In this document: positions 3,704 through 63,268 of the stretch, in pieces
Position numbering within the stretch: the stretch's first letter is position 1
Layout: each line of letters starts with the position of its first letter
DNA from: Candidatus Enterousia sp.
GTDB taxonomy: Bacteria > Pseudomonadota > Alphaproteobacteria > Rs-D84
Assembly (NCBI GenBank): GCA_045587125.1
Contig: JAZNBN010000012.1
Coordinates: forward strand, 17,461 to 81,460
Direction: 5' to 3'
DNA: 64,000 nucleotides
Notes under the pieces: model-generated
Told to the model about the DNA's origin: nothing
Seen by the model: the letters and a program-made list of their open reading frames with translations, nothing else
Databases searched by the model: none
Program-made: the position numbers and the translations under genes

Positions 3704-3921
3704 TAGAAAAACCTTGGAGCAGTTATAGTGTATTATAAAATGCTTTTTATTGGTTGCAAGTTTTTTCTGTTGTCGCCCCAGCAATCACAGATTGCGAACG
3801 CTTTGTCCACACTTCCTTTTCGTCACAAAAACAAAACGCCCACAATGGGGTTTTGATTATTTCTGGCGAAGTATGATTTTATCACGACCAACCACATACA
3901 AATTCCAATTCTACAGGGAAT

Positions 3922-4602: not shown

Positions 4603-5445
4603 TTAAGAGTCCTTTGTCTTTAAGAAACGATTGGCAATCGCAGAATTTACTTTATCAATATATTTATCCATTGACATGTCATTCTTAACTTCATTATGGT
4701 TGTATTCCATATAGGCAGCATCCCATGCCGTGTCTTCATTTCTAAAACGTGCGGTTTTAGAACTTAAAGCATCGCCTTTACTGCGTTTAATCAGATATTC
4801 TTCATAAGATTTAAAAATATAATGTTTGATATGCATATTAGCATATGTCCCGTTTTGCAGCCTGGCATTTGATATTGGCACGATTGGTTCACCTATTGCA
4901 TTTACCGCCACATAACCATCAATGGCTGATGGTAAATGTAGATTTTTCACTATTATGCGTCTTGGGTTTATAATGCTTTTGCACATTTCTGATGTAACAT
5001 TTGTCGTGTTATGAGATTTGAAACGTTCGATTACCAATCCCGGCTGTTTAGTTTTACGACCTGAATCACCATATACCATCCACTGTAAAACAACGGCGGC
5101 TTGGTCTTCAAATTTTTCTAAATCTGTTCTTATGTTACCTGTGTCTGAATATAAAAACTCATCAATATCAATAACAGCCAGCCAGTGGGTATCATTTTGA
5201 TGTTTGTTAACACAATCCCTGTAGGCTGGCATTTGCATGGCGATACCAGGCCAATACGTATAATCTACAATACCGGCATCAATGTAAGGCTGTAAAACCT
5301 GTCTTATATTATCTGTACTGCCGTTATCATAGATATAGAATTTCTCCACCCCAACAATCAAATGGTATTCTAACCATTCCGGCATATATTCTGCCTCGTT
5401 CTTGATAATACAAGTGGCAGATAAATAATATTGTGGTTTTATCAT
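4603..5445 (-). CDS. Glycosyltransferase (GT2 / GT92-like fold)
   Basis: N-terminal CIIKNEAEYMPEWLEYHL...YIYDNGSTD and a DIDEF (DxD-like) motif. Overlaps the upstream gene by 4 nt. Confidence 0.65.
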   Translation of the reverse strand: MIKPQYYLSATCIIKNEAEYMPEWLEYHLIVGVEKFYIYDNGSTDNIRQVLQPYIDAGIVDYTYWPGIAMQMPAYRDCVNKHQNDTHWLAVIDIDEFLYSDTGNIRTDLEKFEDQAAVVLQWMVYGDSGRKTKQPGLVIERFKSHNTTNVTSEMCKSIINPRRIIVKNLHLPSAIDGYVAVNAIGEPIVPISNARLQNGTYANMHIKHYIFKSYEEYLIKRSKGDALSSKTARFRNEDTAWDAAYMEYNHNEVKNDMSMDKYIDKVNSAIANRFLKTKDS

Positions 5446-6872
5446 CTAAACTTTTGTTTCAATATTCCGTTGTGTATAATATATTCAGCAGTTAGGGGCA
5501 ATTGATCCAAAAATGCCCTTTCATGCGATATAACCAGAAAAGCACCGGGATACTGAGATAGAACCGATGCAATATATTGCTTTGTTTCAATGTCAAGGTT
5601 GTTTGTTATTTCGTCCAGAATCAATAATTTTGGTGGTCGTGCAGCAATTTGCGCCAATGATAATCGTGCCTTTTCACCGCCTGACAATGTCTTGACCTTG
5701 GCGAACACTTCTTCATTTTTTCTGAATAAGAATGAATTTAGATGTTTTCTTATTTCCAAGGAATTCATGGATGGATTTCTATCTTGAATAGTGCCTTCTA
5801 CGGTTTGTTCTGAATCAAGATTTTGATAATGTTGTTCCAAATACCCTATATCCTTGGTGGGCAACAAATGCCAATCACCATTACACGTAACTTTTGGGTC
5901 TTGCATTAACGCACGAATAAAGGTAGTTTTACCAGATGCATTACTGCCACTGAGGGCAATCTTATCATTAGAATCAATTGAAAAATATATTTCAGACAAA
6001 ACCGTTTGAGTTCCATAACCACATTCCCCAAAAGAAACAGATACAAGGTTACTATTAGATTGCGTGTATGCACTGTCTAAGACAAACTTTGGTCTGTATT
6101 CTTCTGGTAGTCTGTTACTACCTATCTCGGTTTGAACTTCTTCTAATTTTTCACGCAACTTGGTAATTTTTGCACCAGCTTTTGCCTGGGCGTTACCAGA
6201 TTTTGCATCAAAGCCCAGTTTATCATTGTCTTTGGCTTTCTTTTTGCCGGACTTTGCCATTTTTTGTGCTTCTTGCTGACGCTGAATTCTTAGTTTTTTC
6301 TTTTCTTTTTGTAATGAATCCAATGCTTTCTGCTGAACTGACAGCTGAATTCCCTTTTCAGACATATAATCGTAATAATTGCCAAAGAAAACATTTATGC
6401 GATCATTTTCGATATGCCAAATTTTATCAACGCATTTTGTCAGCAAATCAATATCGTGTGTTACAATTATCAGTGTTCCTTGATAATTGTTCAACATTCT
6501 CATCAATGAATATTTGGTATTTTGGTCTAGGTGATTTGTCGGCTCGTCCAACACCAATACATCTGGATGGCTTGCAAGTGCATCTGAAAAAGATTTATTA
6601 AACCTTTCGCCACCACTTAGATCGGTGTGTTGTAAAACCGTTTGTGGCACATAACCAATACGTAATCCATCAACACCAGAAACTCGTCCTGAGGTCGAAT
6701 CCATATTATCTGTTAAAATTTTTAACAAAGATGATTTGCCGGTCCCGTTACGACCAATAATACCAATACGTTCCCCGGGAAGAATTTGAGTGGAGAACCC
6801 AGAAAAACAAATCTTGTGTGGAAATTCAAGAGATAAATTCGTTATAGATATTGGTTTATGTGCCATAAACAA
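5442..6872 (-). CDS. ABC-F family ATPase (two ABC domains, no membrane domain)
   Basis: Two Walker A motifs (GRNGTGKS, GSNASGKT), two LSGGE signatures and two Walker B motifs (LDEPTNHLD, LDEITNNLD). A Lys/Gln-rich interdomain linker joins them. Confidence 0.8.
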   Translation of the reverse strand: MFMAHKPISITNLSLEFPHKICFSGFSTQILPGERIGIIGRNGTGKSSLLKILTDNMDSTSGRVSGVDGLRIGYVPQTVLQHTDLSGGERFNKSFSDALASHPDVLVLDEPTNHLDQNTKYSLMRMLNNYQGTLIIVTHDIDLLTKCVDKIWHIENDRINVFFGNYYDYMSEKGIQLSVQQKALDSLQKEKKKLRIQRQQEAQKMAKSGKKKAKDNDKLGFDAKSGNAQAKAGAKITKLREKLEEVQTEIGSNRLPEEYRPKFVLDSAYTQSNSNLVSVSFGECGYGTQTVLSEIYFSIDSNDKIALSGSNASGKTTFIRALMQDPKVTCNGDWHLLPTKDIGYLEQHYQNLDSEQTVEGTIQDRNPSMNSLEIRKHLNSFLFRKNEEVFAKVKTLSGGEKARLSLAQIAARPPKLLILDEITNNLDIETKQYIASVLSQYPGAFLVISHERAFLDQLPLTAEYIIHNGILKQKFR

Positions 6873-10706: not shown

Positions 10707-11899
10707 AAATACTGTCTGTTCTAAATATTTCTAATAAAGAAAATATAACCTGTGATTCTGGTTATATTTTTCAAGCTATACTTGCAGAAGAGTTTAACAA
10801 AAAGGGGCACGAATATATTGTTGCAGGCTCTAATTGTAAGCAATTTAGAAAAGTAAAAATTCCATACACCAAAAAGGTCTATTTACCATTGGGGACAAAT
10901 AAATATAGTGCCAGATTTGATTTTGATTCTAGGTATTTTTATAAACTGCTAGACAAAATAAAACCGGATATTATTTTTAATACCCAAGCAGAATTGACAC
11001 CCGCTATAAAATCTGTACTGGCATGGAATAAATTAAATATACCTGTGGTAACCTATTGTCATTATCCCGCATTATGGGCCAATAAACCGAATTCATCAAT
11101 CCCGGAATTAGACCAAAGTTTAAATTCCGAAAATTTGTGTACGCCTATTTTAATGAACATACTAAGTGCCCTACAAATATCTGATGTATTTATAATACAA
11201 AGCAAGTTTGCCAAAAAACTATTAGAAAAGGCGGCAAAATTTCACAATATAAAATATAAAAAAAATAGATTTTTTGTTATCGCACCACCAGCAGACGAAA
11301 AGTTCTTGGAATATATATACACAAATGAGCCTGATAGAAATTTTGTATACAACCACAGATTGTATAAGACATACGGAACAGAAAAATTTATAACTATATT
11401 CAAAAAGCTGAACAAGAAATATGGTGTTAATTGCTCTGTTCTAGACCCTATGCAAAAACGTTCTAAACAACGTTCCGCACACAACAATACCCCGGCTGAA
11501 TATTTACAACAAATGGCTCAAACGCAGGGATTCATTGTTGAGAGAAACAATAGGGACAGAAATGAATACAAGCGAATTTTATCAAAATCTCTTGCAGGTT
11601 TTGCTCCATTAAGACCGGCCTGCGTTTGGTCTATGGCCGCAATGGATTGTATGGGACTGGGAATTCCTGTAATTGCGCCAAATATGGCCGCGTTTCCTGA
11701 ATTTATACCACAAAAACTGCTGTATAAAAATCAATCAGAATTAGAAAATATTGTTAAAAACATAATTGAAGACAGCTCTTTCAGACAATCGATGTCTAGA
11801 GAATGCTTTAATATAGCAAAGAAATATTCTGCTAAAAACATTGCAGGCAAATTAGAAAGTGTTTTCAAACAAGTATTGGATAAAACATGTATGGAATAA
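10703..11899 (+). CDS. GT-B fold glycosyltransferase (GT4-like)
   Basis: Size and C-terminal pattern (AMDCMGLGIPVIAPN...PEFI). Overlaps the upstream gene by 4 nt. Confidence 0.6.
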   Translation: MKILSVLNISNKENITCDSGYIFQAILAEEFNKKGHEYIVAGSNCKQFRKVKIPYTKKVYLPLGTNKYSARFDFDSRYFYKLLDKIKPDIIFNTQAELTPAIKSVLAWNKLNIPVVTYCHYPALWANKPNSSIPELDQSLNSENLCTPILMNILSALQISDVFIIQSKFAKKLLEKAAKFHNIKYKKNRFFVIAPPADEKFLEYIYTNEPDRNFVYNHRLYKTYGTEKFITIFKKLNKKYGVNCSVLDPMQKRSKQRSAHNNTPAEYLQQMAQTQGFIVERNNRDRNEYKRILSKSLAGFAPLRPACVWSMAAMDCMGLGIPVIAPNMAAFPEFIPQKLLYKNQSELENIVKNIIEDSSFRQSMSRECFNIAKKYSAKNIAGKLESVFKQVLDKTCME

Positions 11900-13524
11900 C
11901 AGGAATTGTCGGAAACGATAAAAAATATTTAACAAAATCTATAAAGAAAATTTCTAGGCGGGGGCGCGCTTATGTTGTTCAGAATTTATCAGCAGATAAG
12001 TATGTCACATTATCATTCAACAAAACAAACAGAACCCCACAACCTGTTCATTTCTTTATAGATGAGTGTTCTGGGGATTTTTGCCTGTTTTACGGTATAT
12101 TATACGATAAAAGTACAATTTATAAGTTGTTGGGAACAAGCGCAATATCAGATGATGCCGAACTTATTATGAAATTGTACAAAAAAATGGGTTCTAAATT
12201 TATAAAATCCCTTGATGGCAGTTTTGTGATTATTCTTGGAACCAAAGGTAAGTTATCGCTAATTTCAGATTATTTTGGCACGAAAAACCTATATTATTCC
12301 GAAACACCCAATGATTACTTCGTTTTTTCTTCTTCATTACAATCAATATTACGCTATGTAAAAAAATCCAAGATTTCAGAACAGGCGTTGACCAGTTATT
12401 TACAATACCGTTTTGTTGCTCATCCTCTAACAATATTTGAAAATATATATAAGATATCGCCAAAACAAATAATCCAAATTGGCGACAAAATAATAAAAAA
12501 GCAATACACAAAGGATGTTGTGTCATCAAAATCTTTGAAAGATTGGGCACAGATTGTAGCAGACTGTCATTCTGATAAAACTGGATTGTTGTTAAGTGGC
12601 GGATTAGATTCGAGTATATTAGCATCATTAACAAAACCAGTAAAAGCGTTTACAATTTCTTACGAAACACGACACTCAGATATGGATTTATCTTGTGCAA
12701 AACTGGTTGCAGCAAAATTTAACCATAAACATAACGTTGTTAAAATGAAATGTCGTGATATTTTGTCTGCTTTGAATAGTTCTATCTGTCAACTTGAAGA
12801 ACCGATATATTCCACTATTTCTGCCAGTAGCAACTTTTTAGCAAATAAAGCAAAAAAATCAGTAAGCACAATGATTACTGGCGATGGTGCGGATGAGCTG
12901 TTCATAGGATACAACTATATAAGAACAGCCCTAAACAGTAAAAATAACGAGATAGAAGAATACAAAAAGCAAATTTCATGGTGTGACAAAAAGTTATACC
13001 AAACCCTTTTTGTGAAAAATATTCAGCAGATTGATTTGATTAAGAAAACAAATACTGCACTGGACACAATAATGAACTTTGAGCAAAATTATCGCTTGCC
13101 AAATTATCACTTGTTTAGATTGGAAAAGATAATGGCTGCCAACAATATCATTGCGTGCACACCTTTTTTGTCGGAACAAATGTTAAATTATGTGTCTGCT
13201 TTTACAAATAAAACATTGTATACAACTCCGCCAAAAAAACATCTTAGCCAACCATTTGTTGATGTTTTACCTATGGATGTTATTACCAGACAAAAGCAAC
13301 CATTTCCTGCCCCGTTTATCGTATGGATTGATACATGCTTGCGTAAAGATATAATCAAGACTTTTTCTAATAAAAAACTAACCTGCAAAATAGGGATAAA
13401 TTGTGGTAATCTACTGAATTTAGCATACAAACAAGACAAACAATATCATGATTATACAACAATTTGGGGGGTTTACATGTTGTTAAAATGGTTGAAACGA
13501 TTTAAAAGATATATTGCACAATAA
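11887..13524 (+). CDS. Asparagine synthetase B-like amidotransferase with Tyr in place of the N-terminal nucleophile Cys
   Basis: Starts MYGITGIVG where the family consensus is MCGI. PP-loop LLLSGGLDSS is present. An in-frame stop lies two codons upstream of the ATG (TAA at 11881-11883). Confidence 0.7.
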   Translation: MYGITGIVGNDKKYLTKSIKKISRRGRAYVVQNLSADKYVTLSFNKTNRTPQPVHFFIDECSGDFCLFYGILYDKSTIYKLLGTSAISDDAELIMKLYKKMGSKFIKSLDGSFVIILGTKGKLSLISDYFGTKNLYYSETPNDYFVFSSSLQSILRYVKKSKISEQALTSYLQYRFVAHPLTIFENIYKISPKQIIQIGDKIIKKQYTKDVVSSKSLKDWAQIVADCHSDKTGLLLSGGLDSSILASLTKPVKAFTISYETRHSDMDLSCAKLVAAKFNHKHNVVKMKCRDILSALNSSICQLEEPIYSTISASSNFLANKAKKSVSTMITGDGADELFIGYNYIRTALNSKNNEIEEYKKQISWCDKKLYQTLFVKNIQQIDLIKKTNTALDTIMNFEQNYRLPNYHLFRLEKIMAANNIIACTPFLSEQMLNYVSAFTNKTLYTTPPKKHLSQPFVDVLPMDVITRQKQPFPAPFIVWIDTCLRKDIIKTFSNKKLTCKIGINCGNLLNLAYKQDKQYHDYTTIWGVYMLLKWLKRFKRYIAQ

Positions 13525-27055: not shown

Positions 27056-28492
27056 TTAGCCCTGCAAAATGTTTATCATGCAATCTATTGACTGTCGCAT
27101 TTCTTCGTCTGATGGCTCCAATGGATGTAGAAGATTACGTTCGTTCCTTGACGCCTCTGGGTGGTGGTAAAAATTTCTTATATACGTCATTAAAGTAAGC
27201 TTTTGGGCTGATTTAAAAACTCCATCTTTTAATCGTGACCATAGCTTTTCTTGTTTTACGTCATTTGTTTTCAAAAATTCTTCCATTTCATTTTCTTTTT
27301 CACGTCCATTTTTTTCTTGTATATAGCCATATAATTCATCATGAAACTCTATCGTTGGTATATTAAACGCAAAATATCTTATTTCCGCATACGTAGGCCC
27401 AAATGGCAGTACGAATTTATTGTTAACAGATTCTGCTTTAACGGTATTTTCTTGTTCGGTCAGTACGATTATTTGCGCTTTCTTATCCATAGCATCTTTT
27501 AATACATATTCGGAATGAGTCGCAAAAAATATTTGTGACTTTTGTTCTGTTTCTGTCTTAAACAAATCAGAATAAAATGAAAATATTTTACTTTGCCATC
27601 TTGGATGCATACTAATTTCTGGCTCATCAATTAAAACAATACTTCCGTCTAGCACGCCCATATTTTTGAGCAAAAAGCCTCCTCTAAATACAATTTGTTT
27701 TTCTCCGGAACTTAATTCTTCTAATCTAACTTGTTTACCGTTTTTCATAAACATCACTTGTTGCTGATTACCATCTGCTACAATCCCGTGAAAATTTATA
27801 CTTTGAAACATTTTGTTAAAAGCATCTGTGAATCTAGACAGTTTTACATGCTTTACTTCATTTGGTGGCACACAACCGTCATGCACATCTATCCAATCTG
27901 ACAAATATTGATTATCTTGCACGCTGATATCTATCAACAACTGCTTAAATAGCATTGCGATATCTTTGTTGGTATGTCTAGGTCCGAGATCTTCTAAGGA
28001 ATCGATTTGAGATGCTGTAATTGATCTGATTGCTTGTGTTTCAAAATTCATTCCTACTTTAGAGTGAATAGAATGAAATACTGAGGAAACTCTGTTCATA
28101 ATCGCAGGATAAGGATGTTTTTCTCCAGACAAGTAAACGACATAATTGTTATAACTGTCGTCTTCCGTATGTTTGTATTGTAGCACAAAAGTCTTATTAT
28201 CTAAATTCCTTACTATGGACACACGTGGTTCTCCTAAAAATGATTTAACTAAATCAAATTCTTTCGAAGTTAGTATGCATTTTATTTCAAAATCAAAAGA
28301 AGGCCTGGTCAGTAAAAAATTATGCATTTGAGCTGTTATATTATGCAACAGATTTAGCAGAGCTGTCTTCCCTGTGCCGTTTTCACCGGCAAAAACTATA
28401 TTTTTATACGGCTTACCATTTTCATCACAAAAATTTAATTCTAAATCATGTAAAATCGGATGATTCTGTAATTTTAAACTTGCTATTTCCAT
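27056..28492 (-). CDS. ABC-type (AAA_21-like) ATPase with a C-terminal domain of unknown function
   Basis: Walker A GENGTGKT, Walker B VLIDEPEISMHP, and FFATHS. Start set at MEIASLKL. Confidence 0.65.
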   Translation of the reverse strand: MEIASLKLQNHPILHDLELNFCDENGKPYKNIVFAGENGTGKTALLNLLHNITAQMHNFLLTRPSFDFEIKCILTSKEFDLVKSFLGEPRVSIVRNLDNKTFVLQYKHTEDDSYNNYVVYLSGEKHPYPAIMNRVSSVFHSIHSKVGMNFETQAIRSITASQIDSLEDLGPRHTNKDIAMLFKQLLIDISVQDNQYLSDWIDVHDGCVPPNEVKHVKLSRFTDAFNKMFQSINFHGIVADGNQQQVMFMKNGKQVRLEELSSGEKQIVFRGGFLLKNMGVLDGSIVLIDEPEISMHPRWQSKIFSFYSDLFKTETEQKSQIFFATHSEYVLKDAMDKKAQIIVLTEQENTVKAESVNNKFVLPFGPTYAEIRYFAFNIPTIEFHDELYGYIQEKNGREKENEMEEFLKTNDVKQEKLWSRLKDGVFKSAQKLTLMTYIRNFYHHPEASRNERNLLHPLEPSDEEMRQSIDCMINILQG

Positions 28493-28587
28493 ATTCGGTC
28501 CTTTTAAACCAAACATACAATGATAATGATGTAAATTCAATAACTTTTTATATAAAAACCGCCCCATTTTGGAGCGGTTGGTTTTTA

Positions 28588-31266: not shown

Positions 31267-31342
31267 TCGGGCATAGTTCAGTCGGTAGAACAACGGACTG
31301 TTAATCCGTATGTCACTGGTTCGAGTCCAGTTGCCCGAGCCA
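31267..31342 (+). tRNA. tRNA-Asn (anticodon GTT), CCA encoded
   Basis: Hand-folded: acceptor TCGGGCA/TGCCCGA, anticodon loop CTGTTAA, T-arm ACTGG-TTCGAGT-CCAGT, discriminator G. 76 nt. Confidence 0.92.
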
Positions 31343-35878: not shown

Positions 35879-37525
35879 ATGGCAAAAAGCGAAACTATTA
35901 AAAATGAAGATATTTGGCAGAAAGACAAACTTGGTATAAAGCAGCACGTTACAAGCTTTGCCAATATTTTAAAGCAGGAAAAATACGTAGAAAATGGGAC
36001 ATCAAAAGTTTATTCCATTTCTGCTGAATTTGGTGTCGGAAAAACCTTCTTTTGCGAAAGACTGGCAGACATCTTGGAGCAAGACGGCATTCCTGTAAGC
36101 ATGCTAAATATATGGAAAATGGACTTTTATGATAATCCATTGGTGCCCTTGTTGATAAAACTAGAAGAAACATACTCACAACAATCAGAAACTGTTCGCA
36201 CAAAAAAGTTTCCAAACCCTCATGGATTATTAAGAGTTGCAAAATCTATTATTGCCGGTATAAATTTAGACGCACAAATTCCTGGTGTTGGCGAAATGAA
36301 CATTAACGGCGAAAAAATGGTTAACACTAATGAAAGCTTGAAACAGAATTCAACACAAAAATCCATCTATGACGAATACAAAACATTTGAAGAAGAACTG
36401 CATAAGATTAAAAGCTTTTTGGAAAATTGGGCAAAGAGCCTAGAAAGATCAATAGTTGTAATTATTGATGAATTAGATCGTTGTCGCCCAGACTATGCAG
36501 TAAAGACACTTGAAACTCTCAAACATTTCTTTGACATCCCTGGATTTGTATTTGTTTTGGCAATCGATGAATGCCAGCTTAAAAGCTCTGTGGAAACGTT
36601 ATATGGCACAAAGAATTTTGACGGATATAAACGTAAATTTATAAATAATTCTTTTGTGCTGCCTGAACCAGACAAAGTAAAATTTACAGATTATTTATAT
36701 GCCAAATCTGGTTTAGATCATATTATTAAACAAATTGAAAACAATCAAAGGGATTTGGTGTTTAAAATTAGACGCAATACGTATATAGAGAGGAGTTTGC
36801 CCGCTAGAATTAGCACCGAATTTCAAGAGGAACTAAATAAAATCAAAACATACAACCAACAACAAACATCAGAGTCTATTATTAAACGATATTTTGCTGC
36901 GTATAGTATACGATATAAGTTTTCTTTACGACAAATGGAACAAGTATTTGATAGGTTAGTTTTGTTCATAAAAAACATATTGGCAAATAATGTATTATTT
37001 TCACCAGACCTTGCTGTATTCTTGGTATGTTTACATGAATTTGATTTAGCAATATATACCAAACTTAAACAGAAAGGGTATATTGGATATGATGAAAATA
37101 TACAGACTGTAATTATTGGATCTAATACATCATTAGCCTATTCAATTTACGATAAAAATTCATTTTCAAAAGTATCTGGAGTTTTAGATAGCAACATAGT
37201 TCCAAATGTTCACACATATCCAGGATTTTCAAGCTCGCAGCCAGAAAGCGACCTCACTAGCTCTCGTATATGCATACGCCATAATGTAGACCGTTTTTTC
37301 AAAGCAGATAAAAACACAGCTATGAGATTCATAACTGACACAACAGAGTTTGGCGAAAGCAACCAAATCGACAATGGGGGAAGAATTACAATTGTTAGAC
37401 ACCCTCAAACGGACTCTCAATGGAAAACGCCGCCGCCAGATATAGATACAGCATCTGACTTTGATCTAGATGTGTTTAAGCAGGTATACTTCGAAAATGT
37501 AGAGTTTGTTTCTAATTTTTCCTGA
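35879..37525 (+). CDS. KAP-family P-loop NTPase
   Basis: Walker A AEFGVGKTFF and VVIIDELDRCRPDYAVKTLETLKHFF (KAP signature). Confidence 0.75.
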   Translation: MAKSETIKNEDIWQKDKLGIKQHVTSFANILKQEKYVENGTSKVYSISAEFGVGKTFFCERLADILEQDGIPVSMLNIWKMDFYDNPLVPLLIKLEETYSQQSETVRTKKFPNPHGLLRVAKSIIAGINLDAQIPGVGEMNINGEKMVNTNESLKQNSTQKSIYDEYKTFEEELHKIKSFLENWAKSLERSIVVIIDELDRCRPDYAVKTLETLKHFFDIPGFVFVLAIDECQLKSSVETLYGTKNFDGYKRKFINNSFVLPEPDKVKFTDYLYAKSGLDHIIKQIENNQRDLVFKIRRNTYIERSLPARISTEFQEELNKIKTYNQQQTSESIIKRYFAAYSIRYKFSLRQMEQVFDRLVLFIKNILANNVLFSPDLAVFLVCLHEFDLAIYTKLKQKGYIGYDENIQTVIIGSNTSLAYSIYDKNSFSKVSGVLDSNIVPNVHTYPGFSSSQPESDLTSSRICIRHNVDRFFKADKNTAMRFITDTTEFGESNQIDNGGRITIVRHPQTDSQWKTPPPDIDTASDFDLDVFKQVYFENVEFVSNFS

Positions 37526-49264: not shown

Positions 49265-50734
49265 TTATTTTTGTTTTTCTGTTATCATGTTTTTAAATAT
49301 TTCTACAATTTCTGCCTGTTTTTCCATGGCAACGGTTCCATCTTTGAATTTATTAATGATATTTATTGCAGGATTACCAGATTTTTTTATTCCACAAAAT
49401 GTTTCTATATCACGTGGAAAACCATACACATAATCTGTTAATTCAGAAAATTCATTTTTAACAGCAATATTGTCAGCCCTATTTGGATCACCATCAGTGT
49501 CATATAACACAGAATGATGGATATTATAGCTGTTTAATATTTTTTGAAAATATGGCATAGACCATTTCCCAATCGTATCAATAACCGTTACATTCTGGGT
49601 CAAAGAATGAGGCAAATCACCACGTTGCTTTAAATAGTTATATAACATATATTCTGTGGGTCCTTCAACCAAAGCGACCTTTTTTGCAAAAAATATATCA
49701 CTGCGTGGTCTGTCAAGGTACACCAGATTTTTCGCAATTTCTAATTCTGAATCTGGGATTTTATTTTGATGCACCTTTGTAAAACCATTTTGTTTATCAA
49801 CACGTATTATACCACGTATATCCATAACATTTTCAGACACCAAATGACCAGAATGCGTTGTTGCAATAACCTGTTGATTATTTGCCTTGGCAAAACCACG
49901 TAAATCATATACCAAATCTGCGATTGCATTAGGATGCATGTATGCTTCTGGTTCTTCATATAACAAAACAGTTGGTTTTATACCGTATAAAATTTCATCC
50001 AGTTGCGCATTTATTTTTATAAGCCCTGCAATTATACGTCTTTGTGTACCAGTGCTTAGCATACTTAAATCCTTTATACCTCCAAAATCTTCTTTCATAT
50101 GTAGCGACATCCGCGATTTAGACAGTTGCGGGTCAAAAAAGACATCAGGTTGCACACCCAGCATTTGAATTTCTTTGGCAATTTTTCGTTCAAGCTTGCT
50201 AAATTCATATTTAAACAAAAATTTATATGACACTTTTGTCCTTTCTATTCTTTTGTGAATAGATTCATTCAATTTATCTATGATATTTTTATATGTATGT
50301 TGCATATTATCACCAGATGGAATATAGATAACCTTACCAAACAAATCTTCAATTGGTTGATCTGATTGTGGTACGTCTGGATATACATAGTGGGTTTTAA
50401 AACTATCATCATCCCGCAATTCAAAGTTTGAAAAATCTACCTCTCTTCGTACACGTAATTTATTTTTATGTATTCTATATGCCTCTGGTAACGCCATATA
50501 CTCCACAGGAGTCATATCATATTCTATTTCTATCCACGGTACAGAATCAAAATCGGAATCGAAACAAAGATCCCCTGTATTTAATTCAATATCACCGTAA
50601 AAAAATCGAATTGCATCAATTATATTACTTTTACCAACATTATTTTCACCAACAATAATAGAATAATCTTGAAGTTCTATTGTTGCATGTTGGATTGTTC
50701 TAAATTTATTAATAGTTACAGATTTTATTTTCAT
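49265..50734 (-). CDS. OLD-family nuclease (ABC-type ATPase plus Toprim)
   Basis: Walker A GENNVGKS, Walker B LLYEEPEAYMHP, Toprim ALVEGPTEY and YDTDGD. Confidence 0.75.
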   Translation of the reverse strand: MKIKSVTINKFRTIQHATIELQDYSIIVGENNVGKSNIIDAIRFFYGDIELNTGDLCFDSDFDSVPWIEIEYDMTPVEYMALPEAYRIHKNKLRVRREVDFSNFELRDDDSFKTHYVYPDVPQSDQPIEDLFGKVIYIPSGDNMQHTYKNIIDKLNESIHKRIERTKVSYKFLFKYEFSKLERKIAKEIQMLGVQPDVFFDPQLSKSRMSLHMKEDFGGIKDLSMLSTGTQRRIIAGLIKINAQLDEILYGIKPTVLLYEEPEAYMHPNAIADLVYDLRGFAKANNQQVIATTHSGHLVSENVMDIRGIIRVDKQNGFTKVHQNKIPDSELEIAKNLVYLDRPRSDIFFAKKVALVEGPTEYMLYNYLKQRGDLPHSLTQNVTVIDTIGKWSMPYFQKILNSYNIHHSVLYDTDGDPNRADNIAVKNEFSELTDYVYGFPRDIETFCGIKKSGNPAINIINKFKDGTVAMEKQAEIVEIFKNMITEKQK

Positions 50735-57101: not shown

Positions 57102-58313
57102 ATGGCAAAAAAAGAATTAGACAAATCTGTAAAACGCGGATTGACCCTGTTGAAAATGGGGTGGTTTTGTCATAATTTTATGCTGATTGTACCTGTGATT
57201 GTGTTGGTTTATACGTCCAAGGGTATAACCGTTGGGGACTTCTTTTTAATTCAGGGTATATTCAGATTGGCTGCGTTTTTATTTGAAATACCGTCTGGGT
57301 ATATGTCTGATTGTTTAAGCCGCAGACGTGTTATGATTGCGGGTGGCGTATCTACAATTGCCGGTTATGTGTCTATTGCGTTGGCATCTGGATTTTGGAC
57401 ATTAATTATGGGCGAAGCGTTACTGGGGATTGCCAGTGCACTGTTTTCCGGCACATTAGAGGCATATACATACGATTTGTTAAAACGCAACAAAACACAA
57501 AAACAATTCTTAAAAGAATTTGGCAGTATCACCACTTGGGCGGGGGTTGCAGAATTTGTAGCCATGATTATTGGTGGAATATTATACGGATATATTGGTG
57601 CAAATATATTGTGGATTGAAACCGTAATTATGTTGTTTGGTACGATTGTCTTCTTGTTCTTGCCCGAATTATTAGAAGTCAAACGCGTTGTAAAACACAA
57701 AGATGCAATTACAGATGCGGTATCTATTACAGTCAAAACGTTGCAAAATCCAAAACTGCGGAACCTGATATTATTTCCATCTTTGTACGGTGCGTTCACA
57801 ATCATAATGTTCTGGATATTACAGCCAATTATGGACACTGTAAAAATACCGGTTGGATTATTTGGGGTTTATGCAGGTGCCAGTCAATTGTTTCGTATAA
57901 TATTGTCTAAGTACGCATATAAAATATGTGAAAAATTGGGTGAAATTCGCACTTCGATGATAACAATTGGTACGGTTGTAATTGGGATTACAATGGGGTT
58001 GATTGCCACACATATCAACAATATGCCATTAATATATATTGCATGTATGATTTTGGCAATATCACCGTCTTTCAGAATATTAAACAATTTGCAATATAAC
58101 ACTTTGATTCATCACAGCATTAAATCAAATGAACGTGGGACGGTACTTTCCACCCGCGCAATGGTTGCGACCATTGTTGGGGCAATTGGATTGATTATGG
58201 CAAAATTCTTGCTGGACGGATTTGGAATCACAACCACATTGGTATTTGTATTGTGTATGTCTGGTCTGTTGGTATGGTCGTTAAAACGCGTTATGAAATA
58301 TATAAAGAACTAA
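57102..58313 (+). CDS. MFS transporter
   Basis: About 12 hydrophobic segments and a loop motif SDCLSRRRVM between TM2 and TM3. Confidence 0.7.
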   Translation: MAKKELDKSVKRGLTLLKMGWFCHNFMLIVPVIVLVYTSKGITVGDFFLIQGIFRLAAFLFEIPSGYMSDCLSRRRVMIAGGVSTIAGYVSIALASGFWTLIMGEALLGIASALFSGTLEAYTYDLLKRNKTQKQFLKEFGSITTWAGVAEFVAMIIGGILYGYIGANILWIETVIMLFGTIVFLFLPELLEVKRVVKHKDAITDAVSITVKTLQNPKLRNLILFPSLYGAFTIIMFWILQPIMDTVKIPVGLFGVYAGASQLFRIILSKYAYKICEKLGEIRTSMITIGTVVIGITMGLIATHINNMPLIYIACMILAISPSFRILNNLQYNTLIHHSIKSNERGTVLSTRAMVATIVGAIGLIMAKFLLDGFGITTTLVFVLCMSGLLVWSLKRVMKYIKN

Positions 58314-58314
58314 A

Positions 58315-58334
58315 AACCACCCAATTGGGCGGTT
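58315..58334. terminator. Palindromic hairpin AACCACCC-AATT-GGGCGGTT
   Basis: Lies between convergent genes. Confidence 0.6.
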
Positions 58335-58354
58335 TGTTTTTTGTCTTATTAACG

Positions 58355-59161
58355 TTATTGTTGAATCTGTTTTGTTTTTTTGATGATTTTATCTAACATT
58401 TGCGAAGTTGCATCTTCATAAACCTGTCGTAATTGCTTTAATTTGTCTTTTAATTCAACAGGTATAGCATTGTTTTCATCGCGTATGCCTTGGCCATTAA
58501 AAGTCAAATATTCGTTTGCAATTGCATTAAATTTTGTTGAATAACGTTGCGGTTTTTCCCAGTTTTGCATCAATGTACTTTCCACATTTCTTGCGGCAAA
58601 CTTAAAACAAATAAAATATGCAATTTGATCCAGGTGCTGTGAAATATACACAGATTTGCGGTTTAATAAATCGTCTATACCTTTAGATACTGCACGGCAA
58701 ACTTCTTGGTGTGTTGGTCTGTTGTTTTTCAAGTATGCAGTGGCATATGCAGAAACCTCATCAAAAGCATAAAGGCCCGACATTTCGTAATAGTTTGTCA
58801 TTATCCATAGTGGATTCCCAAATTTTCCATTGGACATATGCTTAGATTCATGAGCAATTGTTTGTGCTTCCCTTTGGTGTATAAAATCAATATCTTTGTA
58901 AATTTGATCATTAGGATCCAAATTCAGACTCGGGTCGATAAAGTATTTATATACAGTTATGTATTTATTTGGCCAAACATAGTCGCCACCAACAAATTGT
59001 ATATGCCCTGAACGATAATCGTCTATATCATATGCGGCAATTATGCAATCAACATATTTTATTTCTGGTTTGTCATAAATGTTTTGAGATATGACAACAA
59101 CAGGCGAATCCTTGGTCGCCTTGTGTTGAAATAAATCAAAAAATCTACTTAACTTGAACAC
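58355..59161 (-). CDS. Hypothetical protein with HExxH-like motif
   Basis: IAHESKHM. Confidence 0.45.
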   Translation of the reverse strand: MFKLSRFFDLFQHKATKDSPVVVISQNIYDKPEIKYVDCIIAAYDIDDYRSGHIQFVGGDYVWPNKYITVYKYFIDPSLNLDPNDQIYKDIDFIHQREAQTIAHESKHMSNGKFGNPLWIMTNYYEMSGLYAFDEVSAYATAYLKNNRPTHQEVCRAVSKGIDDLLNRKSVYISQHLDQIAYFICFKFAARNVESTLMQNWEKPQRYSTKFNAIANEYLTFNGQGIRDENNAIPVELKDKLKQLRQVYEDATSQMLDKIIKKTKQIQQ

Positions 59162-59239
59162 ATCACCATTATAGACAAATAATTTATATTGTCAATATAT
59201 TTGTTCGGTAAAAAAAGCACCCGATTGGGTGGTTTGTTT

Positions 59240-59788
59240 TTATTTTTCCAATATCTTTTCCAAAATGTATATGTGCAGCCATTCTTTATCAACTATGACA
59301 GCATCGTGTTTAATGCCAACTATCTGATAACCATGTTTTAACAAGTTGTTTAACGAACGAATATTCTTGTGACACACTTCTGCATAAAGTTTATGAACGC
59401 CATTTTCACGTGCCCATTTTTCAACCATAGTTTTAAGTTTGCCGCCAAGCCCTTGGGAAGTATATTTATCCAGAATAACACTGCCTGTTTCGCCAGTTAA
59501 GCCACGATATTTTGGATTTTCTGGTGCGATTCTTGTAATTGTAGATTCTCCAATAAGGTTATCGCCATCCCAAGCACCCAAAAACAAATTATTTGGGTTA
59601 TCATACATAGCCATAGAAGATTCTTTATCCTTTTTCGGTTGTCCAGGGTATTGACTGGTATATTTTACCCCTGGGTCACGCACAAATTTATCAAAGAATT
59701 TCATCATGGCATCATAATCTGTGCCACGAACACGTCTTATAGTGACAACTTTACCATTCTTTAATTTGAATTTAATGCTGCGGTTCAT
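59240..59788 (-). CDS. GNAT acetyltransferase (tandem paralogue 1)
   Basis: MNRSIKFKLKNGKVV...SQGLGGKLK...ILEKILEK. Start set at MNRS. Confidence 0.65.
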   Translation of the reverse strand: MNRSIKFKLKNGKVVTIRRVRGTDYDAMMKFFDKFVRDPGVKYTSQYPGQPKKDKESSMAMYDNPNNLFLGAWDGDNLIGESTITRIAPENPKYRGLTGETGSVILDKYTSQGLGGKLKTMVEKWARENGVHKLYAEVCHKNIRSLNNLLKHGYQIVGIKHDAVIVDKEWLHIYILEKILEK

Positions 59789-59798
59789 AATAAAATCC

Positions 59799-60344
59799 TT
59801 ATTTCTCCAATATCTTTTCAAGAATATATTCGTGGTGCCATTCACCATCTATGAACGCGGTATCGTGTAAAATGCCGACAATTTCATATCCTTGTTTTAA
59901 CAGATTTCCCAAAGAACGAGTGTTTTTGTGGCGGACTTCGCTTTGTAATTTATGCACATTATGTTCCAGTGCCCATTTGTTAATAATTTGTTTGAATTTA
60001 GTTCCCAAACCATTGGATGTATATTTTTCCAACATCGTTGTGCCTGTTGTTGCAACACGGCCAGAATATGGGTGGTCTGGCATCTTTTTCATTATGCTTG
60101 CTGTTCCGACTATTTTATTTCCATCAAATGCCGCAATAAACAAACTGTTTTCGTTGTTCCAATCTTTTTCTGCTTTTTCTTTTGACGGCAAAGGACGCCC
60201 AGGATATTGCCATGTCCATTTTGCACTTGGGCCCTTTCTGAATTCGTCCATATATTTCACAAAAGCATCATAATCACCAATTTTCATTGGACGAATAACA
60301 ACTTCTTTCCCATTTTTTAATTTGAATTTAATGCTGCGGTTCAT
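59799..60344 (-). CDS. GNAT acetyltransferase (tandem paralogue 2)
   Basis: MNRSIKFKLKNGKEV...SNGLGTKFK...ILEKILEK. Collinear with the paralogue along its whole length. Confidence 0.65.
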   Translation of the reverse strand: MNRSIKFKLKNGKEVVIRPMKIGDYDAFVKYMDEFRKGPSAKWTWQYPGRPLPSKEKAEKDWNNENSLFIAAFDGNKIVGTASIMKKMPDHPYSGRVATTGTTMLEKYTSNGLGTKFKQIINKWALEHNVHKLQSEVRHKNTRSLGNLLKQGYEIVGILHDTAFIDGEWHHEYILEKILEK

Positions 60345-60411
60345 GCCACCCCACTTTTTTGTTATAATATCCATAACATACAAAATAATCACCCGTATAG
60401 CAATAAAAAAA

Positions 60412-60425
60412 CACCCATTTGGGTG
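60412..60425 (-). terminator. Hairpin CACCC-N4-GGGTG followed by a U7 run on the minus strand
   Basis: Directly after the 54-codon ORF. Confidence 0.65.
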
Positions 60426-60431
60426 GTTTAG

Positions 60432-60596
60432 TTACGGCATAAGGCGTGTTGGTCCACGAAACAAGAATGTCGATTCACGCAGGACAACAAATGCGACACT
60501 GGATTGCAGACGCAACGTTTGCGCATGACCTTTGACAGTTATAATTTCGCCAATTTTTTGTGGAATTTCGGCGATATGCGTTCTTATTTTTGACAT
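60432..60596 (-). pseudogene. 54-codon ORF resembling the N-terminal OB-fold of a class IIb aminoacyl-tRNA synthetase (Asn/Asp/Lys type); truncated
   Basis: Not in the ORF track. Strong SD AAGGAGG. MSKIRTHIAEIPQKIGEIITVKGHAQTLRLQSSVAFVVLRES fits the V.V.GWV...R..G...F..LRD pattern. Confidence 0.4.
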
Positions 60597-60875
60597 TTTT
60601 AACCTCCTTGTTGTGTTCGTTGTTTATGTTTTAATAAGAACACAAGGACGTTAAAACACACATACCGCAATAATCAGAATGCGTGGACAACGTGATGCCA
60701 CCTTGTTTCGTAACATTGTCACCAATGTTACCTTTTCAACTCTCGCTGGGTTCGCCATACCATTAAAGAGTCCGCTGCTGTAACGGGCAGTCCCGGGAAG
60801 TTCTAGTAAGTGCAAAATGTATTGCCACCGTTCTTCTTCCGCCTCGCCATTGTTAGAGGGTCATCGGCCTTTCAT
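60597..60875 (-). promoter_or_regulatory. T-box-like leader with an SD-sequestering platform
   Basis: - T-box core ACAAGG-UGGCAUC-ACGUU at 60689-60706.
- Its partner AACGU-CCUUGU at 60642-60652.
- The same CCUUGUGUUC can instead pair with GAACACAACAAGG, which overlaps the SD.
- F-box CCGUUA at 60781-60786.
- Stem III GUAACAUUG-GUGA-CAAUGUUAC.
- Promoter TTGCAA-16-TATAAT at 60881-60908. Confidence 0.6.
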
Positions 60876-61000
60876 ATTGTATTATAGTACAAAAAAATAT
60901 TTTTGCAAGTGTTTTTACTATATGCATTATCCACTTGATATTCCTTGACAAACCTGACAAACACAATACTATTACTATTCTAATCAAAGGACATAAAAAA

Positions 61001-61711
61001 ATGACGTCAAACAAAAATACAAAATTATACAGAAAATATGTTGGTATTACACCTGATGAACGTAAAGAAAAAATCCATTTGGACCTGATATCCTTTCCAA
61101 TAGCTTTATTCGCAATGGGAAACATAATTTGGTTATTCGGACAAAGCACCCCAACAAGAGTAATGGGTCAACGAAATCGTATGTACAAACCATATAAAGC
61201 TGCAATACACGATGCATATATTCCAACTGATAAATACATAATTGATGAAAACACATACAATACTGGCCAATTAAAAATCAACCCAAATCCAAAGTTCAAA
61301 GTAAATGGATTATGGTTGGCAAATTTAATACTGTCACTATTCTTCTTTATTGGCTCCGCATACGTACATACAGAAAACAAAAGAGATTTGGCCACAGTAG
61401 ATATGATGGTTGATCTGGAAAAATTCGGAAAAATTTATAATTTGAATACCAGACAGGTTAAACAACTGGTAAAAAAATCTAGTAATATTATTGCCAAAAT
61501 GTCAAAAGAAAATCATGTTTATTTTGACATGATAATAAACGGCAAAATTGATATCGATAAAGACAAAACTTTTGTTGATATGGCGGTTGCTATACTGGAC
61601 GGCTATTTGCGTGCACACCCAGAAGAAGAAGCCGGCATATTAAGTGTATTCGCAGAAAACAAGCCTTTGACAGAAAAATTAAAGAAAGTATTGGCGGTTA
61701 AATACAGATAA
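61001..61711 (+). CDS. Hypothetical membrane protein
   Basis: Start at MTSNKN after AAGGA. Two TM segments. Confidence 0.5.
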   Translation: MTSNKNTKLYRKYVGITPDERKEKIHLDLISFPIALFAMGNIIWLFGQSTPTRVMGQRNRMYKPYKAAIHDAYIPTDKYIIDENTYNTGQLKINPNPKFKVNGLWLANLILSLFFFIGSAYVHTENKRDLATVDMMVDLEKFGKIYNLNTRQVKQLVKKSSNIIAKMSKENHVYFDMIINGKIDIDKDKTFVDMAVAILDGYLRAHPEEEAGILSVFAENKPLTEKLKKVLAVKYR

Positions 61712-61735
61712 AAAATCGGACAAATGTCCGATTTT

Positions 61736-63268
61736 TTAATATTGTTTTTGATTTTTACTATAAAGTGTTCTTAATACTGCCCCTGCTTTCAATAATTCGG
61801 ATGTTGGTATTTCCTGCATATTATATTTTTGCTGAAATTTATATATTTTTTTCAGATCTGTTGGTAAATTATCTATCATTTCTGATACATCACGATACAT
61901 ATATATTCTGAACATATCATACATAGACAATTGATATGAACCACCATGCAAACGACGCATCATTGAATTAATAATATTCCTAATTGTTACAGGCTTTCTG
62001 TCATATAAACACGCCAGATCATCTACACTTAGTTTATCTTTGTTTGTTGGCGTATAAATGAAATGTATGCGTTTACATAACTGTATTTTTTCAATATCAT
62101 CATCTGTTATCCCAAAACCATTATATTTCAAATAGATATCCATATTACGTGCCAACACACCACCATACGCATATATATTTTTTATTTTATATTCTGTGTA
62201 ATCAGACATTATTTTGACGGCAAATGAATTTATTGGTTTTTCTATAAAAAATCGGAATTGCATGTCACCCAAAAATTCACGCAACAAATCAACCTTTGGA
62301 AAGATTTGCTTTATCTTGACATAGTTATCCTTGTAACAATCGATTGTTTTTTCAGATTTCTGTGAACTTTTAGCATATTCTTTGGGTGTTAATGGCACAG
62401 ATCCAGTGATTGCAAATATTTTACCCAGAACCAACAAATCATCAGATGATACATCCAAGATATTTTGTGCATTTTGGAATTTATATATTCGGTATTGCTG
62501 GAGCGACAATGTCCGCATAATACCATCAACATCACCCACCACATACATACGCAATACATTGTCTATATTATGAAAACGCCATTTTAATCTTCTTTGCATT
62601 TTTAAAAGCCTCTCACGGACTCCTGGGACACCAATACCGTACAAGACAGCCAATTCAAAACTATTTAATCCATCTTTGCTGGGCACAGGTCTGTTTGTTA
62701 TATTATTTTTACGGTAATCGTCTTGAATCGATTGAATATCTTTGTCTGAGACACCAATTCCAACAGATTTACATACTGTGTTAATATTTATAATATCGTA
62801 CGGTTCAGAAGAAAAAATAAAACCATTAACAACTTTATTTACATAATCTGCTATGACTTTTACAGCAATTGCATCAAATTTGGCATTAATAAAACTTTTA
62901 TAAAATTCATCACCGTACGCAACACGCAATAAATTTACATGCGGAAAAATTTTTACAATTTTCTGATACTGTGCATCAAATAATTTTTGTTCCACATCCG
63001 CCTGTTTTATCACTTCTGATCGTTGTTTTTCTGCCAGACTTGGCAATGCTTTGATATCAGATATAAGTGTCATAATATCAGATGGAACAGGTATATTTTT
63101 TATCGTTCTGATATACATTGCATGTTCAATAGATGTCAAACGACGAAACATATCCGTCCCACGGACAGGTCTGTGACCATTTTGACGACACAAATTCAGA
63201 ATTTCATTCAATTCTGAACGAAACTTTTTATCACCGTTTAATCTTTTTAATTCAGAACAATTGCGCAT
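61736..63268 (-). CDS. Internally duplicated protein with two sigma-70 region-4-like HTH modules
   Basis: Two half-repeats align: KIFPHVNLLRVAYGDEFYKSF...IAVKVIADY with QIFPKVDLLREFLGDMQFRFF...FAVKIMSDY, and FELAVLYGIGVPGVRERLLKMQRRL with DDLACLYDRKPVTIRNIINSMMRRL. Confidence 0.55.
   Translation of the reverse strand: MRNCSELKRLNGDKKFRSELNEILNLCRQNGHRPVRGTDMFRRLTSIEHAMYIRTIKNIPVPSDIMTLISDIKALPSLAEKQRSEVIKQADVEQKLFDAQYQKIVKIFPHVNLLRVAYGDEFYKSFINAKFDAIAVKVIADYVNKVVNGFIFSSEPYDIININTVCKSVGIGVSDKDIQSIQDDYRKNNITNRPVPSKDGLNSFELAVLYGIGVPGVRERLLKMQRRLKWRFHNIDNVLRMYVVGDVDGIMRTLSLQQYRIYKFQNAQNILDVSSDDLLVLGKIFAITGSVPLTPKEYAKSSQKSEKTIDCYKDNYVKIKQIFPKVDLLREFLGDMQFRFFIEKPINSFAVKIMSDYTEYKIKNIYAYGGVLARNMDIYLKYNGFGITDDDIEKIQLCKRIHFIYTPTNKDKLSVDDLACLYDRKPVTIRNIINSMMRRLHGGSYQLSMYDMFRIYMYRDVSEMIDNLPTDLKKIYKFQQKYNMQEIPTSELLKAGAVLRTLYSKNQKQY

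Follow-up and report, generated by a model that had tools for sequence, protein, structure and literature searches.

A predicted translational T-box riboswitch before the remnant of an archaeal-type aspS gene in Candidatus Enterousia

Known T-boxes and the Enterousia leader

T-box riboswitches have been treated as a Gram-positive device, and surveys place them in Firmicutes, Actinobacteria, Chloroflexi and Deinococcus-Thermus, with two deltaproteobacteria besides (PMC2494555, PMC3766115). Here we describe a leader in Candidatus Enterousia (order Rs-D84, Alphaproteobacteria) that sequence comparison very probably identifies as a T-box of the translational class, left as a relic by an in-frame deletion in aspS, an aspartyl-tRNA synthetase (AspRS) gene. 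The leader lies on the minus strand of a stretch of 64,000 nucleotides (nt), the window (contig JAZNBN010000012.1 of assembly GCA_045587125.1, positions 17,461 to 81,460), to which all coordinates refer. A preliminary description of this DNA had remarked that a T-box would be unusual in an alphaproteobacterium-like genome. This holds, since the host is alphaproteobacterial and T-boxes are undocumented there in the surveys; full-text literature searches found no report of one in Alphaproteobacteria, which, as their coverage is incomplete, is absence of evidence. Enterousia belongs to an uncultured order with genomes below 1 Mb that lack amino acid biosynthesis (PMC12306168).

In described translational T-boxes stem I is ultrashort and shows the specifier in its apical loop, an insertion sits atop helix A2, and the Shine-Dalgarno (SD) sequence is occluded by a platform without a U-tract (PMC7583486). 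The class II ileS T-boxes of Actinobacteria (Mycobacterium tuberculosis, M. smegmatis and Nocardia farcinica; PDB 6UFG, 6UFM; PMC7583486) resemble the Enterousia leader in the ultrashort stem I without an elbow-binding platform, the apical-loop specifier followed by a purine, the S-turn of stem II, a IIA/B pseudoknot with F-box (CCGUCA in N. farcinica; CCGUCA or CCGUUA here, where the pseudoknot is a candidate), the UGGN-bulge discriminator, the insertion atop A2, and the opposition of SD sequestrator and antisequestrator. They differ in that the host here is alphaproteobacterial (Rs-D84 and relatives), the gene an archaeal-type, predicted non-discriminating aspS and the specifier AAC or GAC as against AUC. 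An extra 35-nt hairpin lies here between F-box and stem III, and two distant copies are apparently without stem II.

A second precedent concerns regulatory logic. The Asn/Glu 'two-codon' T-box of Clostridium acetobutylicum is described, in papers that cite the original work (Saad et al. 2012 and 2013, via PMC4206432, PMC4052509), as controlling a tRNA-dependent transamidation operon by transcription. As far as those accounts go, reading of tRNA-Asn there controls the transamidation route to Asn-tRNA-Asn, the logic that we propose here. The Clostridium element is, however, by the same accounts a transcriptional, long-stem-I T-box of a Firmicute, with two overlapping specifiers and a multi-gene operon, whereas ours would be translational and short-stemmed, with a single specifier and a single gene, in a Gram-negative lineage. 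The only proteobacterial T-boxes in the surveys, those of leuA in Geobacter sulfurreducens and in Pelobacter carbinolicus (PMC2494555), share with ours a host among the Proteobacteria as traditionally defined. They belong to Deltaproteobacteria, have full-length architecture and serve an amino acid biosynthesis gene, in contrast to an aminoacyl-tRNA synthetase gene in reduced alphaproteobacterial genomes. As for the gene, the AspRS2 of Thermus thermophilus and of Deinococcus radiodurans, an archaeal-type non-discriminating AspRS, serves tRNA-dependent Asn formation in bacteria (PDB 1n9w; PMC4206432).

Architecture and covariation of the leader

The locus is laid out as follows, from promoter to terminator; the last line gives the proposed ligand.

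60881-60908, minus strand: sigma-70-type promoter, TTGCAA (60903-60908), 16-nt spacer and TATAAT (60881-60886), 10 of 12 matches
60597-60873, minus strand: leader of about 278 nt, with all modules of a translational (class II) T-box in canonical order
60841-60868, minus strand: ultrashort stem I, with basal helix GCC/GGC, kink-turn-like (K-turn-like) GAUGA / GAG, a helix of 2-3 base pairs (bp) and a 9-nt apical loop UCUAACAAU
60852-60854, minus strand: proposed specifier triplet AAC (Asn), with the purine A next, at 60851
60796-60840, minus strand: stem II, with base GGAAG/CUUCC, purine-rich S-turn-like internal loop (GAA / AGAA) and variable distal hairpin
60778-60795, minus strand: stem IIA (CGGG/CCCG), F-box CCGUUA (60781-60786) and candidate IIB, a CUG/CAG pseudoknot pairing
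60738-60772, minus strand: extra conserved hairpin of 35 nt, GACUCUU/GAGAGUU plus UGG/CCA, between F-box and stem III
60710-60732, minus strand: stem III, GUAACAUUG-GUGA-CAAUGUUAC, a perfect 9-bp helix with the purine run GAAAAGG before it
60642-60706, minus strand: discriminator (antisequestrator), with A1 ACAAGG/CCUUGU, 7-nt bulge UGGCAUC (60694-60700), A2 ACGUU/AACGU and a capping hairpin (60657-60685)
60597-60656, minus strand: sequestrator helix, in which UUUUAACGUCCUUGUGUUC (60638-60656) pairs with GAACACAACAAGGAGGUUAAAA (60597-60618) and buries the SD
60603-60609, minus strand: SD AAGGAGG, upstream of the ATG at 60596
60432-60596, minus strand: remnant open reading frame (ORF) of 54 codons, ATG at 60596, an OB-fold start joined to an AspRS C-terminal end
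60474-60482, minus strand: deletion junction CTGCGTGAA (codons Leu-Arg-Glu), where one copy of a 9-bp direct repeat is left
60405-60425, minus strand: intrinsic terminator CACCCAAATGGGTG followed by T7 (terminator scan), originally that of the aspS gene
31267-31342, plus strand: tRNA-Asn(GUU), proposed ligand, with G73 and encoded CCA

Much of this layout had been given in the preliminary description and was confirmed: the promoter at this place and on this strand; a leader put there at about 270 nt; the core with A1, bulge and A2 in the layout of a T-box antiterminator; the F-box, the perfect stem III and the GAUGA element; a strong terminator directly behind the ORF; and a tRNA-Asn with discriminator G and anticodon GUU, to which we add the encoded CCA. 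Its count of 11 matches in 14 to the T-box consensus was reproduced against AGGGUGGNACCGCG; relatives reach 12-13 of 14.

Comparison with relatives carries the identification. About 45 species of Candidatus Enterousia / Rs-D84 carry a homologous leader before the intact gene, as do more distant metagenome-assembled genomes (MAGs) from Alphaproteobacteria. A scan of one genome per species yielded the intact gene, of 438 amino acids (aa), at 85-95% identity in about 45 MAGs, whose names are Candidatus Enterousia or 'Alphaproteobacteria bacterium' and whose sources are the guts of ruminants, horses and humans; more distant copies stood at 73-75% and 61%. The protein search gave a continuum of homologues down to about 46% identity, annotated 'aspartate--tRNA(Asn) ligase' in Alphaproteobacteria or Rickettsiales MAGs. 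The homologous loci fetched for comparison are numbered L001 to L071.

We aligned 43 distinct Enterousia-group leaders over 294 columns. The RNAalifold consensus comprised a basal helix, whose asymmetric loop resembles a K-turn, together with a short stem I, stems II, IIA and III, the extra hairpin and a long helix burying the SD. With the ON structure specified, 99.2% of cells were paired and 11 pairs showed compensatory changes, a result equalled by none of 500 shuffles, while slid registers gave 1-4 compensatory pairs. In each of the 40 searched loci in which the sequence preceding the gene is available, R1, a covariance model built from this alignment, matched once and only once, and every match lay immediately upstream of the gene. 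R1 also matched upstream of six homologues at 48-66% protein identity (L066-L071). When 15 diverse leaders were aligned to R1, 98.1% of cells were paired and 29 of 50 pairs were compensatory, as against at most 8 in slid registers. This comparative evidence (conservation, covariation and distant matches) is decisive in placing the leader beyond chance.

Standard annotation misses the element. An Rfam scan of the window at gathering thresholds returned two tRNAs only and no T-box. In a permissive scan of the 701-nt stretch 60300-61000 against 4227 families, the T-box family RF00230 was the match with the lowest E value (17.5 bits, E 0.15), aligned over the full model (1-219) with F-box, stem III and UGG bulge correctly placed. 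That score and the fold of the leader alone (-81 kcal/mol, z = -2.36, 1 of 200 shuffles as good) are suggestive, not conclusive. Homologues scored higher: 29.6 bits for L003 (E 5.6e-4), 38.3 bits for L041 (E 6.5e-5), and 55.6, 40.4, 36.3 and 31.9 bits for distant relatives (E 1.2e-9 to 1.6e-3). The modules stand in canonical order, and cmscan places K-turn, stem II S-turn, IIA/B with F-box, stem III and T-box sequence on the right model positions in each homologue match. The preliminary description had proposed RF00230 as a check and a score below its threshold as grounds for rejection; RF00230 is indeed the top match, and its score falls short of the 93-bit gathering threshold. We do not treat this as refuting, because the threshold was set for transcriptional T-boxes with a long stem I; for translational ones TBDB required a model of their own. 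Its class II model was applied only to Actinobacteria and to class I matches with truncated stem I (PMC7778990). Scores here are low because about 70 nt of stem I are absent and insertions are present.

Stem I with its K-turn spans 28 nt and has no distal platform; its apical loop is 5-9 nt in all lineages. The Rfam alignment sets CGAUGA and GGAG on the K-turn positions of the model and deletes at least 70 nt of stem I. Helix sequences vary between lineages with pairing retained, and comparative data favour the K-turn register (GCC / GAU bulge / G.A A.G / GGC). The preliminary description had drawn a CCUC/GAGG hairpin displaying AAC followed by A. The AAC-A does lie in the apical loop, whichever register is taken; the CCUC/GAGG register was rejected, being broken by a U-to-A change in half of the species that the K-turn register tolerates. 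Thermodynamic z-scores of isolated stem I hairpins were not significant, as expected for 35-nt pieces.

Stem II has four pairs with compensatory changes within Enterousia and further support in the 15-copy set, and its GAA...AGAA aligns to GAA...AGUA of the model. The F-box is CCGUUA in the window and CCGUCA in many relatives. Stem IIA is invariant within Enterousia; IIB is 98.4% paired with one-sided changes only and no compensatory change, so that the IIA/B pseudoknot is consistent with the data, not proven. The extra hairpin (GACUCUU...GCGA...GAGAGUU) has no counterpart in the Rfam T-box model, where cmscan treats it as an insertion. Nearly invariant in Enterousia, it gains 2-3 compensatory pairs once distant relatives are added; relatives with 64-66% protein identity (L066, L067) still have it, and a shorter hairpin stands in its place in L069. 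Stem III shows compensatory changes at 8 of 8 pairs in the 15-sequence set and at 6 of 8 within Enterousia. The discriminator bulge reads UGG[C/U]A[C/U]C in all copies. Conservation of the A1/bulge/A2 arrangement in homologous loci, to which the preliminary description had pointed as a check, is borne out, with three compensatory pairs each in A1 and A2 across lineages (15-copy set).

The promoter scan alone is weak evidence, with 3 such sites per 700 nt against 2.0 expected; real support comes from conservation, as a -35 TTG and a -10 TATAAT at equal spacing recur in relatives.

Several distant loci show other forms of the element. In two termite-gut alphaproteobacterial MAGs (L045:2862-3003 and L068:2350-2500) the leader seems to consist of the K-turn, an ultrashort stem I with GAC, a linker of about 30 nt and the discriminator only, without stem II, IIA/B and stem III; in L068 a separate helix, not in competition with A1, seemingly covers the SD. 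Such a reduced layout is surprising because structural work demands stem II where stem I is truncated: a truncated stem I barely binds tRNA without it (PMC7583486). A contig from Hadza human gut (L069:1-1301 and 2501-3811) carries two class IIb synthetase genes (PF01336 + PF00152) in tandem, the second behind an AAC T-box whose bulge has UGGU for UGGC; the region upstream of the first is cut off. Finally, a Holdemania MAG (Firmicutes; L060:2669-2882) has a canonical long-stem-I T-box (62 bits, E 4.9e-11, again below the gathering score of 93) before a 29%-identical class IIb synthetase gene, and its T-box sequence AGGAUGGCACCACGUU resembles the alphaproteobacterial one.

Alternative folds, regulated gene and specifier

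The leader can adopt two folds. The 3' strands of A2 and A1 (UUUUAACGU CCUUGUGUUC) can pair instead with GAACAC..AAGGAGGUUAAAA, and the pairing of CCUUGUGUUC with GAACACAACAAGG over the SD, as first described, was confirmed in the sequence. The two folds are mutually exclusive because the sequestrator shares CCUUGU and AACGU with A1 and A2. The sequestrator is both the computed minimum-free-energy fold and the consensus fold of the alignment, at about -35 kcal/mol (OFF) against about -22 kcal/mol (ON), the antisequestrator being 10-13 kcal/mol weaker by this computation. A weaker conformer temporarily stabilised by its ligand is the T-box principle, and a weaker antisequestrator is what is expected of such a state (PMC7583486). 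As the register of the sequestrator shifts by one base between lineages, comparison used per-sequence folds, and these support sequestration in Enterousia, L066 and L067; in the latter two the sequestrator's lower part and A2 change in concert.

These folds bear on whether the element might instead be a class I T-box that attenuates transcription, its downstream helix acting as terminator rather than SD sequestrator. Most known T-boxes do act on transcription (PMC7778990, PMC7583486), and the alternative helix is long and stable. Its 3' strand, however, is the SD region, which is followed by AAAAAUG rather than a U-run; the terminator scan predicts no terminator after the discriminator; and stem I lacks the distal platform that transcriptional T-boxes need (PMC7583486). 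A class I element is therefore very improbable, and from the missing U-run and terminator the read-out should be translational.

What the leader precedes is not a complete gene. The ORF joins codons 1-41, with which the OB-fold domain starts, in frame to the 13 codons that end a 438-aa AspRS (residues 426-438). The window bases align to positions 1-127 and 1243-1300 of the L001 gene with a 9-nt overlap, CTGCGTGAA; an in-frame deletion of 1152 nt between two 9-bp copies of this repeat has removed 384 of 438 codons. The intact gene ends in ...LRESTFLFRGPTRLMP and the window ORF in ...VLRESTFLFRGPTRLMP. In L001 the same leader is followed by an OB-fold ORF, then by a class II catalytic core of 344 aa (PF00152) and a GNAT gene; the order in the window is identical minus the core. 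The terminator is the aspS gene's own, since it stands directly 3' of the native stop codon in the alignment to the L001 gene. The same 1152-nt deletion allele occurs in an independent sample (L005).

The identity of the remnant comes from comparing homologues and their contigs, not from direct annotation. The 54-aa peptide gave nothing at or above a Pfam gathering score (best Gins51_C, E 0.19, 12 bits against a cutoff of 27, chance level) and one weak match to an AspRS N-domain in the PDB (E 0.25); it has close metagenome relatives, two with the OB-fold domain PF01336. The intact homologue contains PF01336 and PF00152 in a full-length family match. The reconstructed full-length protein matches NF003483, 'aspartate--tRNA(Asn) ligase', at 454.4 bits against a cutoff of 353, well above asparaginyl-tRNA synthetase models, and the archaeal-type AspRS structures 3nel, 1b8a and 1n9w at E 1e-88 to 1e-79 (1n9w, 1.2e-79). 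Like AspRS2 it is about 438 aa long and apparently lacks the GAD insertion, judged from length and end-to-end match only. The parent gene is thus an archaeal-type aspS, probably non-discriminating, its substrate range being deduced from family membership and T-box specifiers, and the 54-aa remnant is a pseudogene fragment of the NF003483 family, not a member enzyme. The earlier reading of an Asn-specific, SD-sequestering T-box before a truncated asnS-like gene thus stands as to T-box, Asn specifier and class IIb remnant; asnS gives way to aspS, and the OB-fold start turns out to belong to a fusion of N- and C-terminal ends rather than to a simple N-terminal truncation.

Other alleles are disrupted in different ways: L001 has lost about 22-28 nt with a shift of frame, L004 has a premature stop after 52 codons, and in L003 the gene breaks off after 131 nt. 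Some may be assembly errors of low-coverage contigs, and the short 54-aa query enriched for disrupted alleles.

About 45 species have the AAC-controlled aspS copy intact, while it has been deleted here and is broken in a few further samples, so that some strains can do without it. The window codes for no other class IIb synthetase, and neither the Rfam scan, the R1 model nor protein comparison found a second T-box or synthetase paralogue within it. We predict that strains with the deletion must have another AspRS and another route to Asn-tRNA-Asn. The window leader shares about 93% identity with its nearest relatives, L005 and L001. At two columns that are invariant elsewhere it alone is substituted, once by a C-to-U change in the bulge; it still looks foldable, and the deletion is probably recent. 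We also considered that this bulge change proves decay, an argument weakened by the identical UGGCAUC bulge of L066, which precedes an intact gene; the variant is probably tolerated.

The state of the leader raises the question of continued use, in which it would control a functional 54-aa micropeptide or, by read-through, the two GNAT genes downstream. In keeping with this, the deletion is in frame, the leader keeps its near-identity to L005 and L001 with only two private changes, the allele recurs in another sample, and GNAT genes adjoin the locus in many relatives. But an in-frame outcome has a prior probability of one third, the fusion peptide is an OB-fold fragment, a strong intrinsic terminator separates ORF and GNAT gene, and the GNAT genes of relatives lie on either side and in either orientation and so are not an obligate part of an operon. 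We give continued use as small a chance as transcriptional attenuation and prefer the reading of a relic T-box.

The strongest single argument that the apical-loop triplet is a specifier comes from its switch between lineages. AACAAU in UCUAACAAU is invariant in 43 of 43 Enterousia-group leaders, and the same loop position holds AAC plus purine in L066, L067 and L069 and GAC plus purine in L045, L068, L070 and L071. Asp and Asn are the two tRNA substrates predicted for the regulated non-discriminating AspRS; because the AAC/GAC switch follows them, we take the triplet to be the specifier. The other contact fits as well. The bulge UGGC is complementary to the G73-CCA end of the window tRNA-Asn, in agreement with the GCCA pairing proposed at the outset. 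L066 also has a tRNA-Asn, ending ...CCCGAG; the UGGU bulge of L069 would require a G.U pair or a tRNA with A73.

The triplet also argues against a leader that is a structured operator bound by the synthetase itself, in autogenous repression like that of E. coli thrS and without tRNA sensing. The regulated gene does encode an aminoacyl-tRNA synthetase, the leader is highly structured and its SD can be occluded. An operator of the thrS type, however, mimics the anticodon arm, whereas the loop here shows the codon (AAC/GAC) and not GUU/GUC; the codon tracks the tRNA substrates of the enzyme across lineages; and T-box sequence with UGGN bulge, F-box and S-turn all appear in canonical order. Such an operator seems marginally less probable even than the two preceding explanations.

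As a T-box, the leader would work as follows. In relatives with an intact gene, the leader mRNA would bind tRNA-Asn, whose anticodon GUU would pair with the AAC triplet in the apical loop of stem I, a contact that stem II and the IIA/B pseudoknot should reinforce. The free GCCA 3' end of an uncharged tRNA could pair with UGGC in the 7-nt bulge and so stabilise A1 and A2, the antisequestrator. Without this pairing the 3' strands of A1 and A2 would pair with the ribosome-binding region, bury the SD and turn translation off. The product, a predicted non-discriminating AspRS, would make Asp-tRNA-Asn, the substrate of GatCAB, and a feedback loop would follow in which undercharged tRNA-Asn yields more AspRS. 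In the window, a seemingly intact leader now guards only the 54-codon fusion peptide, followed by the original terminator.

Several observations weigh against this reading or parts of it. The window copy alone is not significant (E 0.15), and neither it nor its relatives (17.2 to 55.6 bits) reach the RF00230 gathering score. The 15-copy alignment was fitted to R1 and thus leans towards the structure, though the margin is large. Within Enterousia, A1, A2, stem IIA and the lower part of the extra hairpin are invariant, so that their support comes only from distant relatives. In about half of the species the K-turn reads GAUAA, not GAUGA, which puts A.A for the usual G.A. The apical loop also holds CAA, ACA and AAU, and the specifier register is one that we infer. 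The window has U in the bulge where the 42 other leaders have C. G73 is usual in tRNA-Asp too, so the bulge is unlikely to discriminate between Asp and Asn. Lastly, in L069, L070 and L071, the most distant relatives, the helix that would sequester the SD is weak or hard to make out.

That the resemblance to a T-box is a chance match in an A+T-rich intergenic region, which the subthreshold score of the window copy might suggest, has a negligible probability and is refuted by the covariation in the 43- and 15-leader sets and by the distant matches: Rfam T-box or R1 matches precede the same gene in 6 of 6 added relatives at 48-66% protein identity (the one upstream of L068 covering the discriminator only), 29 of 50 pairs are compensatory, and the triplet switches between two cognate codons. 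Attenuation by a leader peptide was also rejected, as the overlapping ORF varies in start, end and length (29-89 codons) and has no start codon in several species.

Setting and significance

Tandem GNAT acetyltransferase genes (PF00583 / PF13302, with a weak ArsN1-like NCBIfam match) lie just downstream of the remnant, at 59240-59848 and 59799-60392 on the minus strand. GNAT homologues adjoin the T-box-aspS locus, on either side and in either orientation, in many relatives (L001, L009-L011, L017, L018, L032, L040, L046, L048, L050, L051 and L068), and one even adjoins a 42%-identical gene in an Anaerolineaceae MAG. A functional link between GNAT and aspS, for example detoxification of aminoacyl-adenylate or amino acid analogues, is only a guess. 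In L001 aspS and the GNAT gene are separated by a 156-aa ORF (L001:6260-6730), of which the other fetched loci showed no homologue; in the window (about 60393-60431) the GNAT gene follows directly behind the terminator, apparently leaving no room for that ORF, although the window was not itself searched for it.

Farther off, an asparagine-synthase-like amidotransferase is encoded at 11887-13524 on the plus strand (TIGR01536, 166 bits against a cutoff of 267); should its product be asparagine, this might partly account for the tRNA-dependent route having become dispensable in this strain. Four ORFs, at 27056-28567 (minus), 35879-37525 (plus), 49265-50734 (minus) and 5442-6872 (minus), gave defence-like or ABC-F matches: weak sub-cutoff matches to anti-phage defence ATPases or effectors (restriction-associated AAA / PtuA-like, QatA-like, retron Eco8 effector-like) and, for one ORF, 363 bits against a ribosomal-protection-like ABC-F model, just below its cutoff of 380. 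Four more large ORFs in the window had no NCBIfam match. The window looks rich in accessory genes. Comparison of 58000-63000 with phages (blastn, distant setting) and of 40000-64000 with plasmids (megablast) gave no match.

Beyond the window, we lean, with modest conviction, towards an unrecognised clade of translational T-boxes among Gram-negative gut Alphaproteobacteria with reduced genomes (Rs-D84/Enterousia, and related MAGs that carry the label Rickettsiales or Alphaproteobacteria). The clade would have been coupled for long to an archaeal-type aspS, with a specifier toggling between GAC and AAC, and the stripped-down versions of L045 and L068 would seemingly work without stem II. New here are the host class, the type of regulated gene, the Asp/Asn specifier switching and the extra lineage-specific hairpin; the T-box mechanism itself is already known.

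A conserved, covarying family of alphaproteobacterial T-boxes that standard Rfam annotation misses points to a wider host range and to a blind spot of threshold-based annotation. If functional, these leaders would extend tRNA-sensing riboswitches to Alphaproteobacteria and provide a natural series for how little RNA suffices in tRNA recognition. The Asp/Asn switch on one orthologous, predicted dual-substrate synthetase would be a clean natural experiment in the evolution of T-box specificity. The window copy would show a riboswitch just after gene loss, its RNA almost intact, and could be useful for dating and recognising orphan riboswitches. For the organisms themselves, the findings hint that amino-acid-auxotrophic symbionts (PMC12306168) may tune tRNA-dependent formation of Asn-tRNA.

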